Assembly: GCA_048884965.1 (NCBI GenBank)
Contig: JBHLQH010000003.1
Location: forward strand, 1 to 35,203
Reading direction: 5' to 3'
Source: Candidatus Thorarchaeota archaeon
GTDB taxonomy: Archaea > Asgardarchaeota > Thorarchaeia > Thorarchaeales > Thorarchaeaceae
DNA length: 35,203 bases
The translations under genes were made by a program, and so were the position numbers. Positions 1 to 11,022 of the stretch are shown piece by piece (within the stretch, counting starts at the first letter, position 1; each line of letters starts with the position of its first letter). The notes under the pieces were generated by a model. That model did not search any database. It worked only from the letters and a program-made list of their open reading frames with translations, and had not been told where the DNA came from.

Positions 1-1719
1 ATCACTGAAGTGTGCCTTCAGGTCGTCATATGTGACTTCCTCCTTCTGCTCTAGGAGTCTAAGCACAGGCTGAGCAATCGTTTCTAGACGTTCCATAAGG
101 TACTGCTCCATCAACTGCAGGATGTTCTCAAGCTCCCCACGTGTTCTTGATCCTTCAATCATATCTGTGAAGATTCTATTGAAGAACTCTGGATTGAGCT
201 CAAGAGCTTGAGCTGTGGACTCTCTTAGAGGAACGTTCCGATTCAGGAGAACCTCAATGTTCGCCAACCGTCGGATGCCTGGCATCATGAATACTACCGC
301 AAACCGATAGTCCTCCTTGGTATGCATCGCCTTGTACGCCTTGTTTATGAGGTCTTTCGCAAAGACATAGTTTAGAAAGACCAAGTCCTCAAGGTCACGC
401 ACTCCAACATCATGGACCTCCTCAAAGATGTCATAGATGGTGTCATCGCGAGTGAAGAGAACCTTGCTCTTAGAAACATACGAGTTGAACACGCTTCCAT
501 CACGTCTTCGGTTAGCGAGCTTCCGGAAGCTATCCCTTTGCAAGACGAACACATCAAACGAAACATCCATCTCGATAAAGCCTCGGTAATCACTGTACGG
601 TTCATCTTTCGTAATCATGATCGCATCGATATCTGACTTCTCCCAGACCTTGTCGTATGAAAGACTACCACCTAGTGTGACTGTAAGCACATATTCGTCT
701 GACTTTGCTCGTTCTACAAAGGCATCTATGGCTTTCTGATAATCTGCATGTACTCGTTCCCGTTCAACTTGCGCGGGACCTACTTGAGTCGGTATTACCT
801 TGCTTTTATCAAACGAATCCCAGCTAAAGTGGTATTGAGCCTCATTGTATTCTACGACTCCTTTCTTTGTGAGCTTGACAGGAGTCACTGTTCGTCTGAG
901 AATGCGCCGTCTATGTAGATGAGTTAGATCTACTATGAAAGGAAATCCCCTTTGACCAAGATCTACCATTAGATCCGTTTGTGAAGTAGTCCCTCCCTGT
1001 TCGGAAATATGATCAAGTACTGGTTTGTAGATGATCAAGTCCAGCGAGTCCATAAACTCATACACTTTCCGCAATGACTGGTCCATGGACTCTTCTGTCA
1101 ACTCGTTTGCAATCAGGTCATCATAGACTTGGGAATAGAGTTCAGGTTCGAACTCTCTCCCTCGCAGAATGACTTCTCTTGGGGGAAAGACATCGTTGAT
1201 GTAGCAAAGCAAGTATCCTAGCTCGCTCAATGCGTGAATGAGAGAGTGGAAACTGTGCGCAATGTCTTTCTTGATGTAGAGATACTTCTCCGCCTTTGAT
1301 AGGTCATACAGCGTAGCAAGATGATAAAGAATCTGTAGATAATCTCTGTCTCTCTTACCAACGTTCCATAATATACCCTTGAAGAACTCGGTGAAGGAGC
1401 AATCTCGAGAGAAGACAAGCTTGCCAAAAGAGAGGACCTGTAGCATTCCTCTTCCCCGTGTAGACTGTAGTCTTCTCATGAATTCATCGCGGCTGTATAT
1501 CTCGACATCTATGGGAATCCCATACTCGATCATTCTAGTTGTTCTGTGACGCCCCTCATCCGTGATTACATACACATTGATGTTGGAACGCTCTGTGACC
1601 TCATCATATGCCATGCTACCATAGAGTATGATAGCAAGAACTCGCCTGTCTAGCTTTGCACGTTCGATGAAGCTTGATAGTGCGTCATCGAACTGTTTCC
1701 TTACTTGTGGATCTTCCAT
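1..1719 (-). CDS. Tandem-duplicated nucleotidyltransferase (Pol-beta/MNT-like) + helical + winged-helix protein; truncated by the window edge; not in the ORF track
   Basis: Hand translation: ATG at 1719 (alternative 1728), GGAG ~10 nt upstream, 573 codons open to position 1. Repeat 1: FDDALSSFIERAKLDRRVLAIILYGSMAYDEVTERSNINVYVI...YKPVLDHISEQGG. Repeat 2: YQKAIDAFVERAKSDEYVLTVTLGGSLSYDKVWEKSDIDAIMI...AQPVLRLLEQKEE. GS-x10-DxD is the Pol-beta superfamily signature. Confidence 0.9.
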   Translation of the reverse strand, partial: MEDPQVRKQFDDALSSFIERAKLDRRVLAIILYGSMAYDEVTERSNINVYVITDEGRHRTTRMIEYGIPIDVEIYSRDEFMRRLQSTRGRGMLQVLSFGKLVFSRDCSFTEFFKGILWNVGKRDRDYLQILYHLATLYDLSKAEKYLYIKKDIAHSFHSLIHALSELGYLLCYINDVFPPREVILRGREFEPELYSQVYDDLIANELTEESMDQSLRKVYEFMDSLDLIIYKPVLDHISEQGGTTSQTDLMVDLGQRGFPFIVDLTHLHRRRILRRTVTPVKLTKKGVVEYNEAQYHFSWDSFDKSKVIPTQVGPAQVERERVHADYQKAIDAFVERAKSDEYVLTVTLGGSLSYDKVWEKSDIDAIMITKDEPYSDYRGFIEMDVSFDVFVLQRDSFRKLANRRRDGSVFNSYVSKSKVLFTRDDTIYDIFEEVHDVGVRDLEDLVFLNYVFAKDLINKAYKAMHTKEDYRFAVVFMMPGIRRLANIEVLLNRNVPLRESTAQALELNPEFFNRIFTDMIEGSRTRGELENILQLMEQYLMERLETIAQPVLRLLEQKEEVTYDDLKAHFSD

Positions 1720-1737
1720 ATACAACATCTCCTGAGT

Positions 1738-4569
1738 CTAGGAAGACTCCACTATCTTCTGGAGGAACTTGCCAGTGTAAGACTGCTCACACTTGATGAT
1801 GTCATCTACAGTACCCTGAGCAATGATCTCTCCGCCTTCTGCACCACCCTCAGGTCCAAGATCGATGATGTAGTCGGAAGACTTGATAACGTCCATATGA
1901 TGCTCGATAACGATGACCGTGTTACCAGCATCGACGAGCTTGTGGATGGTCTTCAGGAGCATCTGAATATCCTCCATGTGGAGCCCCACAGTAGGCTCGT
2001 CCATGATGTAGAGGTTATCCTTCAGTCGTTTCAGCTTTCCTAGCTCCTTGGCGAGCTTGATGCGTTGGCTCTCACCTCCGCTCAAGGTCGGCGCAGGTTG
2101 TCCCACCTTAAGATAGCCTAATCCGAGATCCATCATGGTCTTCGTCTTGTGGCGAATCAACCGGGTTTCCCTGAAGAACTCGTTCGCTTCCTCAACGGTC
2201 ATGTTGAGTATATCGCCCATATTCTTCCCGTTATACCGGATCTCAAGGATCTCCTCTGAGAATCTCGCGCCTTTGCAAACTGGGCAGACTGTCTGGATGT
2301 CAGGCATGTACTGCAACTCTATGCGCACAAGTCCCTCACCGTTACACTCTGCACAGCGCCCCTCAGTCGAGTTGTAGCTGAATCTACCTAAAGTATATCC
2401 TCTATCTTTCGCTTCGGGCGTGTTCGCATAGATCTCCCTGATCTTGTTGAAGAAGCCTACATATGTAGCTGGGATTGATCGCGAGTGTCTTCCGATGGGT
2501 GACTGGTCAACGATCCGCACGTCTACGATGTTCTCGACGCCTTCTAGTCGGTCCAACTTTCCTGGTATCACACGAGGGTCTCGCATATCATGTAGGAGCT
2601 TGTTGCCAAGCACATCCTCGATTAACGTGCTCTTCCCACTCCCACTGACGCCTGTGATGCAGATGAACACACCTAGCGGGAACTCCACATCAATACCCTT
2701 CAGATTATTCTCGCTGGCACCAAAGACCTTCAGTTTCTTACCATTTGGCTTACGTGCCTTTCCCAGATAGGGAATCTGCTTCTTTCCTGTCAGATAATGC
2801 CCTGTCAAGAACTTCGGCTCATTAAGAATCGCTTCATAGGATCCTTGGGCTACAATCTCTCCGCCATGAACACCTGGTCCAGGACCGATCTCTATGATGT
2901 TGTCCGCCTGCATGATCGTTTCCAAGTCATGCTCTATGACGATAACAGTGTTCCCAGTGTCCCTAAGTCGCTTCAGGATATCAATAATCCTGTTGCTATC
3001 CCGCATATGAAGGCCAATCGAAGGCTCGTCCAGTACATACAGCATGCCCATCAGCTCTGAGCCTAGCTGTGTGGAGAGCTTTATTCTTTGCGCTTCACCT
3101 GCAGATAGTGTCCGAGCTCGTCTGTTGAGTCTGAGATAGTAGAGTCCTATATCATCTAGGAGTTGGATGCGCTTTCTGAGTTCGCTCTTGACTTGATTCC
3201 CTGCCTTCTCCCTGTCCTTATCCGCCTTGATGGAGTCTACGAACTCCAAGAGATGATTGATGAAGTACTCACCTAACTCGTCAATATTCTTACCTTCTAC
3301 TGTGACAAGTAGACGCTGTTTGATGAGTTTCTTCCCATGACAATCAGGACAGATGTTCTCAGCCATAATCTTCCGATACCACTCGTAGCGTTCGCCCTTC
3401 TTTCGGTCATTCCTGTACCATCTGTCTATAGAGTTGCAAATACCTCCATACTTGACCTTCTGTCCGATTGAACGATGTCTGTATTTGTTAGGCCAATCAG
3501 GAGGTTCCTGAAGGATGAACTCTTCCTCGATTCCATAGAAAAGCTGGTGTCGTGCACTTTCAGATATCTCTTCAAAGGGAGTATCAATATCGAATCCGAG
3601 ATGCTCTCCAATACTGAACATCCAGTACTTGGGATACCATGTCAGAGCTCCTTTCCTGATCGTCTTCTTTGGATCTATAATCATCAGGCGAGAGTCTGCC
3701 TTCAATAACGTTCCAACTCCTAGACAGGTTGGACATGAATGGTCTGGTAGATTCGGTGAGAATGCACCTGGAAGAAGCTTGTGCATGATGATATGATGCT
3801 CTTTGCAACCAAAGTCGCCATAGAACCTCTTCTTCACATCTGATGAAGATGATTCATCTACTTCGAATCTGATGAATCCACTTCCCACTCTATTGGCATT
3901 CTCTATTGATATTGCAAATTGATGATACAGGTCTCTCTTTATGATGATACGGTCTACCAAGACTTCTATCCGATAGTCCTTGGACTCATCAAGCTCGATC
4001 TTATCATTGATGCTATAGGCTACATCATCGACTCTGATCCGCTTGTATCCCTTCGTTCGTATATCATCAAAGAGAAAGGTATAGTCTTCATCATAGATCT
4101 TGTTCACAGGAGCAAGTATCTCTACACTTGTCCCCTCTGGCAAGGTCATGAGGTGATCAACAATTTGGTTTGCGTTACGTGTGTGGACCTTCTTGCCACA
4201 GTACGGACAGTGTGTCTGACCCAAGACCGAGAAGAGGATTCTCATGTAGCTTGAGATGTCCGTCATGGTTCCGACAGTCGACCTCGGGTTCACCGTTCCT
4301 GTTCGCTGTTCTATAGCGACGACAGGCGACAGCCCAATGATCGAGTCTACATCTGCTCTCTCAAGCATAGGTAGCATAGTCCGCGAAGTTGCTGACATCG
4401 ATTCGAAGAACTTACGTTGCGCTTCACTAAAAATAACGTCAAAAGCAAGCGAAGTCTTTCCCGACCCCGACACACCGGTAATAACGGTCAACTTGTCGCG
4501 CGGGATGTCCACGTCTATATTTCTAAGATTGTTAGTCCTAGCTCCTTTTACACTAATGCTTTCTCTCAT
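1738..4569 (-). CDS. uvrA: UvrA-family ABC ATPase (divergent excinuclease A homologue)
   Basis: GARTNNLRNIDV start; two Walker A motifs (GVSGSGKTS, GVSGSGKST); signatures LSAGEAQR and LSGGESQR; Walker B DEPSIGLH and DEPTVGLH; Zn-binding CxxC pairs; NPRSTVGT; UvrB-binding-like insertion present. GGAGG SD at 4579-4583. Confidence 0.95.
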   Translation of the reverse strand: MRESISVKGARTNNLRNIDVDIPRDKLTVITGVSGSGKTSLAFDVIFSEAQRKFFESMSATSRTMLPMLERADVDSIIGLSPVVAIEQRTGTVNPRSTVGTMTDISSYMRILFSVLGQTHCPYCGKKVHTRNANQIVDHLMTLPEGTSVEILAPVNKIYDEDYTFLFDDIRTKGYKRIRVDDVAYSINDKIELDESKDYRIEVLVDRIIIKRDLYHQFAISIENANRVGSGFIRFEVDESSSSDVKKRFYGDFGCKEHHIIMHKLLPGAFSPNLPDHSCPTCLGVGTLLKADSRLMIIDPKKTIRKGALTWYPKYWMFSIGEHLGFDIDTPFEEISESARHQLFYGIEEEFILQEPPDWPNKYRHRSIGQKVKYGGICNSIDRWYRNDRKKGERYEWYRKIMAENICPDCHGKKLIKQRLLVTVEGKNIDELGEYFINHLLEFVDSIKADKDREKAGNQVKSELRKRIQLLDDIGLYYLRLNRRARTLSAGEAQRIKLSTQLGSELMGMLYVLDEPSIGLHMRDSNRIIDILKRLRDTGNTVIVIEHDLETIMQADNIIEIGPGPGVHGGEIVAQGSYEAILNEPKFLTGHYLTGKKQIPYLGKARKPNGKKLKVFGASENNLKGIDVEFPLGVFICITGVSGSGKSTLIEDVLGNKLLHDMRDPRVIPGKLDRLEGVENIVDVRIVDQSPIGRHSRSIPATYVGFFNKIREIYANTPEAKDRGYTLGRFSYNSTEGRCAECNGEGLVRIELQYMPDIQTVCPVCKGARFSEEILEIRYNGKNMGDILNMTVEEANEFFRETRLIRHKTKTMMDLGLGYLKVGQPAPTLSGGESQRIKLAKELGKLKRLKDNLYIMDEPTVGLHMEDIQMLLKTIHKLVDAGNTVIVIEHHMDVIKSSDYIIDLGPEGGAEGGEIIAQGTVDDIIKCEQSYTGKFLQKIVESS

Positions 4570-4675
4570 GTCTTCATGCCTCCAATCATCAGTTCTACCC
4601 TGAGTTCAATACGTATTGGCGATCAACGCCAACAACTCGCAACAGGGCCTGATGCTAACTGAGGTCTCTCATGTC
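4562..4675 (-). promoter_or_regulatory. Structured uvrA 5' leader: SD-occluding nested hairpin with uORF MRDLS* (4672-4655), flanked by 11-nt direct repeats
   Basis: mRNA-sense pairings CCU-CAGU/AUUG-(G)-AGG, CAUCAG/CUGAUG, GCCCU/AGGGU, GAGUU/AACUC, GUUGGCG/CGCCAAU span 4664-4579. GACATGAGAGA occurs at 4675-4665 and 4572-4562. TTATAT box at ~4712-4707. Confidence 0.6.
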
Positions 4676-4918
4676 GATGAGTAGTCGTAGGTGAATCCGA
4701 GAACACATATAATAGAGCTGTTCAACGTAAGTACATCATCACGTTTGGGCATATGACTTTTGGCAAAATGAGTAGATTTTGCGCATTCCAGCGCTTAGCC
4801 ATCCGTACAGCTGTAATTTAAATCCCGGCAAGCCAATTATGGATATGTTTTTGCTAGGCCAATAAGTGTGCTAAGGGAGGTAGGGAACTTCCTGAGCACA
4901 TTGATTCCTTTTCCCCTA

Positions 4919-7420
4919 ATGGAGGATAAGAAATTGAAGCTAGTGAAGTCAAGTGTGATATTGATTTTGGTATTGATATTGTGCAGTTCAATATTGATGT
5001 TTGGTGGAGAACTGACGAACAAGATCATCATTAGCACAAAACCTGTTAGTCTAAGTGCTGGAGATCCGCCAATAGAGATAGCTGGCGATGTTGAATTCAA
5101 TACAACAGCCTTTGCCAACGGATGGAGCGGTAATGGGACCGAAATCAACCCGTATATCATCGAATATCAAGTAATCGACAAGGCTTTTGGACAAGGGCCG
5201 TGTATCAATATTAGTGATACTAGAGCCTATTTCATTATTCGATATTGTGACCTTCGATACGCAACTTACTATCTGAATGGTGCGGGAGTCTACCTAACTA
5301 ATGTCACCAATGGTCAAATTGTTCAGAATACAATCTTCTATAATGAATATGGAATCTACATGTCCTCCTGTCAAGACATTGTTGTGTTCAACAACTCAAT
5401 GTCTTCCATAGATCGTGCAGGACTTTCTCTCTTCAGCTCAAGTTCACTAACTATCGAAAACAATACTATGGATGCAGGGATTGAATTCTGGTGGAGTCAT
5501 TCGAATATCTTGGTAAACAACACACTGGCAGTCGATGGCTTTGATTTCGTCGGATACTATACGGGCGATTTTACGCAGAGTTTTGTTGACGATAATACAG
5601 TCAGTGGAAAGCCCATCATCTTCTGGCAGCATCAAATTGGTGGGACTGTTCCGACTGATGCTGGTCAAGTAATTCTTTTGAACTGTTCAGAATACACTGT
5701 ACGCGATCAGATAATCGACTCGTCGAAAAATGGTATTGACATTATTCGATGCACTGAGATTACAGTAACCAACAACACTCTAACAGGATGCTATAGAGGG
5801 ATTCGCCTCTGCTATTCGCAATCTATAGAAGTTTTCGAGAACAATTGTACTGCAAACAGTCGTTGGGGTATATATCTAGATTCAACATCGGACTCTGAGA
5901 TTCAATACAACCTATGCCAGAATCATTTTAGCTCCGGGTTAGGGGTCGGAATCTATGCCACCACAAGTGAAAACATAACGATTTCTGAGAATAATTGCAC
6001 AACGAATGATGTTGGCATTGAAACCTATTCAAATACCCAGAAATGTAAGATCTTTGATAATATTTGCAATGAGAATTCTCGTGGGATCTCAATGCAGATG
6101 TCTAGGTTGAATGAGGTCTTTGAAAATGAAGTGGTATGGAATACACAATATGGGGTGGTCATCTATAGTCCCTCTGATGACAACATGATAATGAATAACA
6201 ACTTGTCAGAAAATCCACGTGGTGTGTATCTGTCGAACTGTCCTCAGAACCACATCATCAACAACTCGATTTCTGCATCGCACGTAAGCGGGTCCTATGG
6301 AGTCTACGTTTCTGGTGGTTCTGAAGGCCATGTCATTTTTGACAATAAGATTCAGTTCGTAAATTGCGCGATATATCTGAAAGATTCTCTCTATAATACA
6401 CTGAGCTACAATAATCTCACACAGAACAATCTATCTATCTACCTTATCTCGTCAAATCACACCACAATCGCTCATAATCTTCTAGATGGGGGCGATGATA
6501 TCGGCCTCTATATGGAATCAAACACCTGCGACAATGAGATGACTTGGAATGTCTTCAATGATTGTGACATCAACGCTATTGATGATGGTTCTGATTCACT
6601 CTTTGATTACAATTACTGGAGCAACTATACAGGTATTGATGCTGATAGCGATGGAATTGGGGATACGCCACATCCGATTCAGGGCATTGCAGATAACTCT
6701 GATGCGCACCCAGTTGTTGTACTTCCAGAGACGCCAGTGTGGATGAATGGTCCTGAGGATCAGGTTCTCGAATTTGGCGAATCTTTCCACTACGACCTTA
6801 ACGCCACAGTAAGTACGGTTATAGGTGGGTGGAGTCTAAGTGATATGACGGACTTTACTATCAATTCCGAGGGGGTCATTACAAATATCACCTCTCTCTC
6901 AGTTGGTATCTATCCTCTCTATGTTGATGTTTTTGATATATATGGAATGACTCTCACTGGATTCTTTATTCTTGAAGTAGAAGACACCACATCTCCTTCT
7001 TGGGTATCGGTTCCAGAAAATCAGATTCTAGATTACGACGAGTCATTCTCATACCAGCTCGAAGCATTTGATCTTTCAGGAATTCATACTTGGTATCTCA
7101 ACAATACATCCGAGTTCTCCATTAACAACTCCGGTTTGATAACTAATAATACAATGCTTGCACCAGGGGTATACCATCTCTATGTAGAAGCTTCAGATGT
7201 GTATGGCAATCTAGTTAGTGCCACATTTGATGTGATTGTTCAAGAATCAACTACTACAACTACAGCCACAAGCACCAGTACAACTACATCAACTTCAACA
7301 CACTCAACGACACCCACTCAGCCACCCTTTTTGCTAGACCCCACACTGTTAATGGTTCTGGGAATAGGTGCAGCTGCTTTCGTCATTGTGATAGTATTAG
7401 TCCTTCGAAAACGGGCATAA
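4919..7420 (+). CDS. Cell-surface protein: NosD/CASH right-handed beta-helix, two cadherin/Ig-like repeats, Thr/Ser linker, C-terminal TM anchor
   Basis: Likely start MEDKKLK at 4919 (track starts 4868). Signal peptide; GNGTEINPYIIE; many GI-x-L...NN beta-helix turns; NYWSNYTGIDADSDGIGDTP; two 87-aa repeats; TTTTTATSTST linker; FVIVIVLVLRKRA end. Confidence 0.88.
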   Translation: MEDKKLKLVKSSVILILVLILCSSILMFGGELTNKIIISTKPVSLSAGDPPIEIAGDVEFNTTAFANGWSGNGTEINPYIIEYQVIDKAFGQGPCINISDTRAYFIIRYCDLRYATYYLNGAGVYLTNVTNGQIVQNTIFYNEYGIYMSSCQDIVVFNNSMSSIDRAGLSLFSSSSLTIENNTMDAGIEFWWSHSNILVNNTLAVDGFDFVGYYTGDFTQSFVDDNTVSGKPIIFWQHQIGGTVPTDAGQVILLNCSEYTVRDQIIDSSKNGIDIIRCTEITVTNNTLTGCYRGIRLCYSQSIEVFENNCTANSRWGIYLDSTSDSEIQYNLCQNHFSSGLGVGIYATTSENITISENNCTTNDVGIETYSNTQKCKIFDNICNENSRGISMQMSRLNEVFENEVVWNTQYGVVIYSPSDDNMIMNNNLSENPRGVYLSNCPQNHIINNSISASHVSGSYGVYVSGGSEGHVIFDNKIQFVNCAIYLKDSLYNTLSYNNLTQNNLSIYLISSNHTTIAHNLLDGGDDIGLYMESNTCDNEMTWNVFNDCDINAIDDGSDSLFDYNYWSNYTGIDADSDGIGDTPHPIQGIADNSDAHPVVVLPETPVWMNGPEDQVLEFGESFHYDLNATVSTVIGGWSLSDMTDFTINSEGVITNITSLSVGIYPLYVDVFDIYGMTLTGFFILEVEDTTSPSWVSVPENQILDYDESFSYQLEAFDLSGIHTWYLNNTSEFSINNSGLITNNTMLAPGVYHLYVEASDVYGNLVSATFDVIVQESTTTTTATSTSTTTSTSTHSTTPTQPPFLLDPTLLMVLGIGAAAFVIVIVLVLRKRA
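6734..7246 (+). repeat. Two tandem ~87-aa cadherin-like/Ig-like domains within the surface protein
   Basis: PVWMNGPEDQVLEFGESFHYDLNA...FTINSEGVITN...GIYPLYVDVFDIYG aligns with PSWVSVPENQILDYDESFSYQLEA...FSINNSGLITN...GVYHLYVEASDVYG; the period is 261 nt. Confidence 0.8.
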
Positions 7421-9648: not shown

Positions 9649-11022
9649 TTGTCGAAGTCATCTGTACATCCTAGAGTTCTACAACCTGACTACATTGAGC
9701 AGAGAGCGGATCTTTACCTTATGATATGGCGAGATATCCCTCACTGGATGGTTGCAGATGCAGATGTCCTCAAGACAATCAAGCTCGCAGATGGCACACG
9801 ACGCATATCTGATATAGTGTCAGTCATTCAAGAATCTGGCTCTCCTAGCCCAAGCTATGATGAGATAGGAATGCTGCTTGTCACTCTGGAGAAGGCTGAA
9901 CTAGTTCCTCAGGATGGACCTACACCTCAAGCGGCACCAATAGATCCACTCCTTGAGAATGTAACTGTCAATGTGACACGCCATTGCAATTTGAGATGCA
10001 CGCATTGCTTTGTACCAAATTCTGACAGCATAAGAACCACTCTTGATGTCAATGATTTGGAACGATTCTTAGAAGAAGGCTCTCAAAGCATATCCCCCAA
10101 TCTCAACTTTGCGATTCTAGGAGGAGAGCCCCTTCTTGAGAAAGAAAAGACCTTGGATATCGCTCGTTTGGGTAATAAGTTAGGTGCTGAGGTCATAGTA
10201 TCCACAAACGGTTTGCTTATAGATGATGAATTCGCGCAAAATGCTAAGGATTTAGGTCTTGCTGTACAGGTTTCGCTTGAGGGATCGACATCAGAGCTGA
10301 ACGATACAATTCGTGGCGAAGGAAGCTTCGAGCGAGCTATGAAAGGTGTAAAGATTCTCGTTAATAATGGGACCTATTCTCTAATCTCAATGGTTGTAAC
10401 GATGAATAACCTCAGTGATATTCCCGCCTTCTATCATCTAGGCCGCAAACTTGGTGTTAATGAAATCAGATTCATTGAGATGCGCCGCATGGGGCGCGCA
10501 TTGAGTGAAGGGATTGAACCAGTACCAAGTGCTGTTCTTGTGGAATCTATTCACAAACTTCTCACAGACCATCCAGAAGCCCGTAAGTATGTGATACGCG
10601 ACCATCTCTCTGTTATGAAGTACCTCTGCGCACGATCAAAGAAGCGCGCATACTGTGGAGCTGGTTTGAAGACGATCCTGATTGATGCAGATGGAGAAGT
10701 CTATCCGTGTCCCAATCACGCGAAACCGGAATTCTCCTGTGGTAATATCAGAAACCACTTATTCGGAGAGATTTGGATGGAATCTGATACTCTGAAGCAT
10801 CTTCGCTCAACCTATCAAATCGACCAAATCAACGAAGTATGCTCGCAATGTGCTATCAAGTATTGGTGCTTGGGAGGCTGCCGAGGAGAAACCTATGAGA
10901 ACACCACAAATCTACGGGCTGTTGGAGTGGGATGTGAATCTCTGCGTAAAGGCATCATCGAAACCTTTTGGCTACTTGCTACAGGGGAGGAAGCAACTGC
11001 AACCAAGACTGAATATTTCTAG
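9649..11022 (+). CDS. Radical SAM/SPASM peptide-maturase-like protein with N-terminal PqqD/RRE-like domain
   Basis: CNLRCTHC; GGEPLL; STNG; SPASM motif CGAG...GEVYPC...CSQCAIKYWCLGGC...C. The N-terminal ~90 aa have the RRE pattern (LYLMIW..HWMVAD..IKLADGTRRISDIV..LLVTLEKAELV). Confidence 0.92.
   Translation: MSKSSVHPRVLQPDYIEQRADLYLMIWRDIPHWMVADADVLKTIKLADGTRRISDIVSVIQESGSPSPSYDEIGMLLVTLEKAELVPQDGPTPQAAPIDPLLENVTVNVTRHCNLRCTHCFVPNSDSIRTTLDVNDLERFLEEGSQSISPNLNFAILGGEPLLEKEKTLDIARLGNKLGAEVIVSTNGLLIDDEFAQNAKDLGLAVQVSLEGSTSELNDTIRGEGSFERAMKGVKILVNNGTYSLISMVVTMNNLSDIPAFYHLGRKLGVNEIRFIEMRRMGRALSEGIEPVPSAVLVESIHKLLTDHPEARKYVIRDHLSVMKYLCARSKKRAYCGAGLKTILIDADGEVYPCPNHAKPEFSCGNIRNHLFGEIWMESDTLKHLRSTYQIDQINEVCSQCAIKYWCLGGCRGETYENTTNLRAVGVGCESLRKGIIETFWLLATGEEATATKTEYF

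Follow-up and report, generated by a model that had tools for sequence, protein, structure and literature searches.

The window analysed here is the whole stretch of 35,203 nucleotides at the start of contig C3 of a Candidatus Thorarchaeota archaeon, whose metagenome-assembled genome (4.09 Mb, 99 contigs) is 95.7% complete with 7.2% contamination. Two genes at its very beginning, read from the reverse strand, are the subject of this analysis: a gene for a UvrA-family protein (P0001) and, directly downstream, a gene for a nucleotidyltransferase (NTase). An initial annotation of this DNA had described a divergent UvrA paired with a partner made of an NTase and a winged helix instead of uvrB or uvrC, and had proposed a module for resistance to DNA damage or drugs, or for defence. 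We found that this UvrA is a paralogue set apart from the housekeeping copies, that an NTase gene adjoins such paralogues in Asgard archaea and on bacterial-like metagenome contigs, and that the pair in the window is preceded by a conserved leader. The features of the locus, in the direction of transcription, are as follows.

4707..4714, reverse strand: TATA-like box TATTATAT, from sequence reading and orthologue alignment.
4570..4690, reverse strand: structured 5′ leader of ~120 nt, conserved and covarying, in which the Shine–Dalgarno (SD) sequence is predicted to be sequestered.
1738..4569, reverse strand: type-1 UvrA paralogue P0001, 943 amino acids (aa) by translation of the open reading frame (ORF); intact, full length and class-I-like, with two ATP-binding cassette (ABC) modules, a UvrB-binding-like domain (residues ~118-256), an insertion domain (residues ~287-398) and Zn modules, the first of them CCCH.
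1720..1737, reverse strand: intergenic spacer of 18 nt, in which an AGGAG ribosome-binding site precedes the ATG at 1719 by 9 nt.
1..1719, reverse strand: first 573 codons of the tandem NTase, starting with the ATG at 1719; the full protein has 627 aa, and its last 54 codons lie on contig C86.

The uvrA stop codon (TAG, 1740-1738) is followed by ACTCAGGAG, an ATG (1728), TTGTAT and a second ATG (1719). We assigned the NTase start to this second ATG, where all orthologues and an independent gene call (P0036) also begin (MEDP...), with the ATG at 1728 as the alternative; the 18 nt that had been given as the distance between the two genes hold for this assignment, and the spacer layout with its ribosome-binding site is common to the orthologues. 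The contig end cuts the NTase ORF at 576 aa if the ATG at 1728 is taken as its start. C86 opens with 77 nt that repeat the window start in reverse complement without a mismatch, and the frame continues there for 54 codons. P0036, a 627-aa protein encoded on a 21-kb contig of another assembly, differs from the window NTase at two of 573 positions and has exactly the tail encoded by C86. Therefore, the partner is a 627-aa protein and C86 adjoins the window. In addition to this tail, C86 carries an ArsR-like winged-helix gene and several genes without a Pfam call. Genome-wide searches gave full uvrB and uvrC matches only on contig C14, and none in the window or on C86, which bears out their reported absence from the window and places neither of them just beyond its edge.

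The genome encodes five UvrA-family genes: the window copy, a 962-aa copy on contig C4 (54% identical to the window copy), two tandem copies on C14 (45% and 44%) and a 1631-aa double UvrA, also on C4. Bona fide uvrB (1002 bits) and uvrC (546 bits) genes were found on C14 only, where the canonical locus uvrB-uvrA-uvrA′ (L064:2670-10407) features 4-nt overlaps at each junction and is followed by uvrC ~5 kb further on. Since C3, C4 and C14 match in GC and tetranucleotide make-up, contamination is an unlikely source of the extra copies. Of the two uvrA copies on C14, the second has GLSAS in place of the H-loop GLH.. of the C-terminal ABC module, and signature I of the first reads TLAGGE; the two may form a heterodimeric housekeeping UvrA.

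A maximum-likelihood tree was constructed by a quick search from 89 UvrAs, with three canonical-type outgroup rows only (C14a, C14b and P0220). This placed 86 of the 89 rows in a paralogue clade apart from the canonical-type rows (Shimodaira–Hasegawa-like approximate likelihood-ratio support 100, stem 0.62), which includes clusters labelled Chloroflexi, Anaerolineae, Paenibacillus and Poribacteria as well as Asgard lineages. P0001 belongs to a type-1 subclade of 30 rows (stem 0.48, members at least 75% identical) that is nested among type-2 branches from Hod-, Odin-, Heimdall- and Thorarchaea. A search of representatives with P0001 was dominated by double-length UvrAs, in which two copies sum their scores, and provided two useful single-length rows. 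Judged by sequence and tree position, the window UvrA is a paralogue distinct from the housekeeping copies, in agreement with the proposal of a paralogue outside nucleotide excision repair (NER) alongside a separate canonical set.

Pfam analysis of P0001 identified the UvrA_inter (PF17760, 87.3 bits) and UvrA_DNA-bind (PF17755, 45.7 bits) domains. With Walker A, Walker B and both signature motifs intact, and with Cys/His Zn ligands that are invariant in 29 orthologues, including a Cys-to-His change in Zn module 1 (CCCH), the protein looks functional. The motifs quoted by the initial annotation (DVIFSEAQRKFFESMS, LSAGE and ELQYMPD) are all present, but LSAGE does not mark a departure of the family as had been assumed: signature I reads LSAGE in part of the paralogue clade and LSGGE in the rest. 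P0001 passes the TIGR00630 model (1094 bits, cut-off 729.8) and public records label it as 'excinuclease ABC subunit UvrA', both of which would suit a housekeeping uvrA that merely lies beside an unrelated NTase gene. Such a coincidence is hardly credible, however, as the canonical uvrB-linked copies score ~200-290 bits higher on the equivalog model NF001503 (1417.6 and 1330.3 bits for the two C14 copies, 1138 for the C4 copy and 1130.9 for P0001, which is under the cut-off of 1147), and it is refuted by the tree and by the neighbourhood survey described below.

P0001 aligns end to end with class I UvrA structures (9gxk, 934 bits; 3zqj, 889; 2r6f, 888). It shares with class I proteins (TIGR00630/NF001503; 9gxk, 3zqj, 2r6f and 3pih) its length, domain order, both ABC sites, the Zn modules and both extra domains, and differs from them in its equivalog score, its own well-supported clade, its linkage to an NTase gene rather than to uvrB or uvrC, and the CCCH ligands of Zn module 1. 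By sequence it is therefore nearly a class I UvrA, but it departs from that class in equivalog score, clade and genomic linkage. DrrC, Ecm16 and Deinococcus radiodurans UvrA2 are class II proteins, which have no UvrB-binding domain and no dedicated partner gene, and the ATPase activity of Ecm16 is needed for resistance to a DNA bis-intercalator (PMC9328131, PMC10192343; PDB 7sh1, 2vf7). Class II proteins are recognised by domain loss and a length of about 800-840 aa. P0001, with 943 aa and a UvrB-binding domain, is not of the DrrC/Ecm16 type in its predicted architecture; 2vf7 (UvrA2) scores 608 bits and aligns only from query residue 269, and the best-scoring stretch against 7sh1 (Ecm16, 458 bits) covers residues 685-939 only, both far below the 934 bits reached with class I. 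The comparison with DrrC made by the initial annotation thus fails for architecture, and stands at most for function, in that these proteins are UvrA paralogues outside classical NER and offer the closest functional analogy for a genotoxin-response role.

The UvrB-binding-like and insertion domains that P0001 keeps bear on another possible role, namely that the pair is a specialised branch or regulator of NER in which the paralogue still loads UvrB, while the NTase serves as a transcription factor or ligand sensor or AMPylates UvrA or UvrB, as MntA and GlnE do with their targets. We consider this unlikely. The UvrB-binding-like and insertion domains are retained under purifying selection, as would be expected of such a branch; the former keeps 75% mean identity within type 1, which argues that it is under selection, and the latter keeps 68%. 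A full uvrB also lies elsewhere in four of the five other type-1 genomes checked. In comparison with the canonical copies of the genome, however, the UvrB-binding-like domain is only 23-31% identical and the insertion domain 11-25%, and these two domains are the most diverged parts of P0001 (11-31%).

To place the pair in its wider genomic context, the neighbourhoods of NTase homologues were surveyed. A profile search found the NTase in 40 of 400 Asgard genomes, distributed over four families, and a UvrA gene adjoins it in all 28 non-truncated loci of the 30 that were fetched. Among the GTDB Thorarchaeota loci, uvrA is directly followed by the NTase gene in seven of seven, with differing flanks. 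Two forms occur in Asgard archaea: a type-1 UvrA (80-93% identical) upstream of a double NTase, in two families, and a single NTase (311-336 aa) upstream of a type-2 UvrA (39-46% identical over the first half), in four families. Both forms are present in the source genome, where a 314-aa NTase overlaps the start of the 962-aa UvrA on C4 by 4 nt. A metagenome scan with an alignment of the single NTases identified 427 relatives and returned 80 loci, in 61 of which the NTase gene is immediately followed by a UvrA paralogue (38-70% identical to P0001) in the same orientation; most of the other 19 break off before a UvrA could be seen. In the 36 loci of at least 5 kb, the NTase and the UvrA are the sole recurring genes. 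A word-indexed search with the 314-aa NTase found 12 close relatives, and tblastn with the same protein gave no match in 72,556 plasmids.

Metagenome loci with 30-34% GC have UvrAs that fall with Asgard branches, and GC-rich loci (52-68% GC) have UvrAs that fall with bacterial-labelled clusters. The bacterial origin of the latter is read from GC and from UvrA similarity to clusters labelled Poribacteria and 'bacterium', and the Chloroflexi, Anaerolineae and Paenibacillus labels sit on other rows of the same clade. The mention in the initial annotation of single-copy NTases beside uvrA paralogues in bacteria is matched by these bacterial-like contigs, and its two-gene module is a conserved one. 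In total, the adjacency recurs in ~90 independent loci and in both gene orders, which is far beyond chance. As it holds while the flanking genes differ, the pair constitutes a self-contained two-gene cassette. Such strict operon linkage over distant lineages speaks more for a stoichiometric partner than for the regulator envisaged for an NER branch.

We found no description of a UvrA and nucleotidyltransferase pair in the literature searched. The uvrA-PG1037-pcrA operon of Porphyromonas gingivalis likewise keeps a second uvrA paralogue (42% homology to the other copy, implicated in H2O2 stress tolerance) with non-NER partners, but PG1037 is described as a SWIM zinc-finger protein rather than an NTase and the operon includes the PcrA helicase (PMC3747172). 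With an unrelated partner, this operon was rejected as an instance of the same system. Two variations on the linkage were seen. In the second Asgard family, an alpha/beta-hydrolase gene (278 aa) lies between the type-1 uvrA and the double NTase (L043:3376-4212, with the same gap in L045). At L078:3379-6763, and similarly at L077, an IS605 OrfB/TnpB-like gene directly follows a UvrA paralogue whose match ends at query residue 632, and the L078 UvrA looks like a gene shortened by insertion.

Pfam analysis of the NTase identified two Pol-beta-type NTase domains. An AlphaFold2 model was built on a full-length orthologue with 63% identity, using an alignment of 31 sequences (predicted local distance difference test (pLDDT) score 90.4, predicted template-modelling (TM) score 0.89). 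This showed a tandem protein in which each half consists of an NTase domain, a HEPN-like four-helix domain and a winged helix. The partner is thus an NTase with a winged helix, as had been described, although it is a tandem of two such modules rather than a single one. In the N-terminal half, the active-site motif reads GS...ERSNIN, with both metal-binding aspartates replaced (NxN for DxD), and this is nearly invariant in 31 orthologues. The C-terminal half and all single-module relatives feature GS...WEKSD[IV]D, in which SD.D is invariant, and the other family-invariant residues are retained in both halves. By its motifs, the NTase reads as a fused pseudo-dimer with one predicted live site ("dead + live"), which presumably arose from a single-module, homodimeric ancestor. 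Complementary decay of a KAEK helix motif between the two halves was also considered and dropped, as single-module homologues do not always retain its glutamate. At G120:C34:17837-19542 (L047), the double NTase gene is present as a decayed copy, the N-terminal part of which contains one TAG and three TAA stops.

The top structural match was 3c18 (YgxA-like; VIA Z 17.9, 279 residues, root-mean-square deviation (rmsd) 4.8), which covers the whole module including the winged helix, and the kanamycin nucleotidyltransferase ANT(4′) was also matched (Z 14.4, 240 residues, rmsd 3.6; Foldseek E 1.6e-8, TM 0.72). ANT(4′)-IIb and LinB were further matches, and HalB followed lower down (fold Z 9.7); Foldseek TM scores to these NTases, normalised to the target, were 0.70-0.72. 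Apart from 3c18, these fold relatives (ANT(4′), ANT(4′)-IIb and LinB) are small-molecule-modifying enzymes. The C-terminal half carries the hallmarks of an ANT(4′)/KNTase domain, GS...SDID and the four-helix domain. Each half shares the NTase and helical-domain fold with ANT(4′)-Ia, ANT(4′)-IIb, LinB and 3c18, and the live half shares hG[GS]...DxD. In contrast to ANT(4′), LinB and 3c18, with which identity is only 11-17%, two modules are fused, one of them is dead, and the protein is tied to a UvrA paralogue; the C-terminal winged helix distinguishes its modules from ANT(4′) and LinB and is shared among these with 3c18 only. ANT(4′) acts as a homodimer, which a tandem fusion would mimic.

The winged helix that ends each NTase module is compatible with a regulatory protein acting within NER, as is a group of relatives from Clostridia (P0069-P0074, 434-436 aa) in which an AraC-type DNA-binding helix-turn-helix (HTH) domain is fused to one module of NTase, helical domain and winged helix. 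The invariance of the live NTase site, however, suggests that catalysis matters. The Clostridial proteins are ~30% identical to the Asgard protein, and their NTase module occupies the usual place of a GyrI-like effector domain.

Known toxin and defence families were compared with the NTase. The MNT-HEPN type VII toxin-antitoxin system was rejected (MntA profile 20.1 bits, cut-off 60), and no Rx4-6H RNase motif was seen in the helical domains when the alignments were inspected by eye. Hailong HalB was also rejected (NF051895, 24.5 bits against a cut-off of 190, with no HalA-like neighbour). PADLOC returned only generic ABC-ATPase (mad3, mad8 and AriA) and minimal-NTase (PDC-S09) matches. These comparisons concern the suggestion that the pair is an anti-phage or anti-plasmid cassette, in which the UvrA-like ATPase would sense foreign or modified DNA and the NTase would produce a nucleotide signal or modify the invader nucleic acid, comparable to Hailong HalB or CBASS-type NTases. 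The patchy distribution of an accessory two-gene cassette with unconserved flanks would be in keeping with this, as would the weak similarity to HalB and the PADLOC candidates PDC-S09 and mad3, and the layout of an ABC ATPase with an effector is reminiscent of PARIS and Gabija-like systems. Against it, the HalB score is far under its cut-off, the PADLOC matches are generic, no homologue was found in the plasmids searched, and no defence genes were seen in the flanks examined (window, C4, C86 and metagenome loci), where the neighbours at sister loci are instead drug sensors, efflux pumps and repair enzymes. A defence role is therefore quite improbable, and neither flanks nor PADLOC point to the anti-phage function that had been raised.

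The initial annotation had also suggested that the two proteins are coupled and that complex prediction could address this. As the window NTase is cut, prediction was carried out on an orthologous pair (G011), with UvrA residues 110-405 (82% identical to the window protein) and the whole NTase. The complex scored 0.60, compared with 0.00 for the best of three controls, with runs agreeing in at least 73% of contacts and a partner pLDDT of at least 84. No interface was returned. In calibration, which holds only roughly given our own alignments, the pass mark was reached by 58 of 80 solved complexes and two of 110 mismatched pairs, and those that passed at 0.60 or less comprised only seven of the 80 solved complexes and both passing mismatches. 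The prediction weakly supports physical binding between UvrA and the NTase and nudges its odds up slightly.

Between the TATA-like box and the uvrA start codon, a conserved covarying leader was newly found in this analysis; each of the 14 distinct type-1 loci examined, which come from two Asgard families, has it. Orthologues carry TGTATATA at the position of the TATA-like box, which as a putative promoter element would set the transcription start near 4690-4685. The leader comprises a 5′ hairpin (P1, 4682-4668), an anti-SD CCUC (4664-4661) that pairs with the SD sequence GGAGG (4583-4579), and a long-range helix (P2, 4654-4645 with 4600-4587; CAUCAG-GCC with GGU-CUGAUG) around a variable hairpin. 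RNAalifold and the single-sequence fold agree on this structure (minimum free energy -39 kcal/mol, z -2.47). In the alignment, 98% of cells are paired, compared with 34-47% when the partner column is slid, and compensatory changes occur in four pairs, among them a U-A to C-G change inside a single genus and a GCC/GGU to UCC/GGA change from one family to the other; most of this covariation separates two clades only and reflects few independent events. Rfam 15 gave no match at E up to 1 over window positions 4400-5000. A model of the leader found a single copy in the genome and no significant match in 54 loci searched, including type-2 loci (best 16 bits, E 0.06).

The leader is a candidate translational switch, either a riboswitch or protein-controlled. 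It resembles SD-sequestering riboswitches and other leader switches in that an upstream CCUC is predicted to pair with GGAGG over a long range inside a covarying multi-helix leader, and differs from SD-sequestering riboswitches in that no Rfam family matches it and in being known here from sequence and predicted fold. To our knowledge, few structured regulatory RNAs have been described in Asgard archaea. The P1 hairpin coincides with a palindrome, CTCA-N4-5-TGAG, at the predicted transcription start, which could be a DNA operator and would then suit a regulatory NTase within NER; the long-range compensatory pairs, however, point to RNA structure rather than an operator. A three-codon upstream ORF (ATG-NNN-NNN-TGA, window 4575-4567), whose stop overlaps the uvrA ATG, occurs in most family-f1 leaders but is missing in L032 and in family f20, and is probably incidental.

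The genomic context of sister loci favours a genotoxin-response role. The island around the single NTase on C4 (L063:2775-17359) encodes, in order, a DinB_2 protein, a small-molecule sensor with an ArsR-type HTH and a GyrI-like domain, the 314-aa NTase, the 962-aa UvrA, a GNAT-OB protein, the 1631-aa double UvrA, a squalene-hopene-cyclase-like protein and an AlkZ-like DNA glycosylase. The same ArsR-GyrI sensor gene also lies upstream in a related genome. Two low-GC metagenome loci (L083:3079-8913 and L115:3097-8895) carry an ArsR-HTH and GyrI-like regulator, a single NTase, a UvrA and a major facilitator superfamily transporter on one strand, which by analogy is the layout of a classic drug-response operon. 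The drug or genotoxin role put forward by the initial annotation is thus favoured, as a reading of context only. In the GNAT-OB protein of the C4 island, the GNAT domain is fused to an Ssb-like OB fold, and a Ras-family GTPase gene adjoins the island.

On this basis, we propose, with somewhat better than even confidence, that the pair is an accessory system for responding to small molecules that bind or damage DNA, with the UvrA paralogue locating distorted sites for the NTase to act on. Paralogue and tandem NTase would be expressed as one accessory unit from one promoter, behind a structured SD-sequestering leader, and would work alongside the housekeeping UvrABC pathway rather than as part of it. 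As a dimer, the paralogue would scan DNA by means of its intact ATPase sites and Zn3 hairpin and stop at distortions caused by a bound or adducted genotoxic small molecule, where it would engage the KNTase-like pseudo-dimer instead of, or besides, loading UvrB. The single live site of the C-terminal half may then transfer a nucleotide to a local target. By analogy with ANT and Lnu enzymes, this target would most likely be the drug, with the lesion or a DNA end as alternatives, and the dead N-terminal half would keep a binding or scaffolding role.

Several points weigh against this proposal. The context of drug sensors, efflux and glycosylase belongs to type-2 sister loci only, the flanks of the pair in the window are uninformative on function, and the bacterial-like loci have unrelated flanks, often with no sensor gene. 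An ANT-like fold does not fix the substrate, as HalB, MntA and HEPN-associated NTases share it, and a protein with a mainly regulatory role would likewise account for the winged helices and for the AraC-HTH fusions of Clostridia. The known UvrA-like resistance proteins DrrC and Ecm16 act alone and lack the UvrB-binding domain that the paralogue keeps, so a hand-off to UvrB is conceivable. Finally, the complex score falls in a range in which most passes are false, except where the pairing was likely beforehand. Some probability is also left for roles that we have not thought of.

A bolder and rather doubtful extension of the genotoxin proposal is that Asgard archaea and, on present evidence, bacteria possess a hitherto undescribed DNA-surveillance system in which a class-I-like UvrA paralogue has swapped UvrB for a KNTase-like NTase. 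It would recruit this enzyme to lesion or drug sites to nucleotidylate the DNA-bound toxin or the lesion, and the riboswitch-like leader of the Asgard type-1 operons would sense the inducer. A full-length UvrA paralogue strictly tied to a dedicated enzyme would put the UvrA scanner to a new use, in which it delivers a modifying enzyme in place of the UvrB helicase; known UvrA paralogues act alone as drug-resistance factors. If the genotoxin proposal is true, the cassette would be a new resistance determinant and a possible genome-mining marker for DNA-targeting natural products. NER capacity counted from genomes may be overestimated, as part of the public record annotates the paralogue as "excinuclease ABC subunit UvrA". 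In addition, the leader provides a candidate structured regulatory RNA in Asgard archaea.

The neighbours of the pair within the window encode a NosD-like beta-helix protein, a NUDIX protein, a beta-lactamase-fold protein, a radical SAM/SPASM protein, a GNAT protein and an acyl-CoA synthetase. The radical SAM/SPASM gene (9649-11022), for which no link to the NTase-UvrA pair was seen, lies near the beta-lactamase-fold, GNAT and NUDIX genes.

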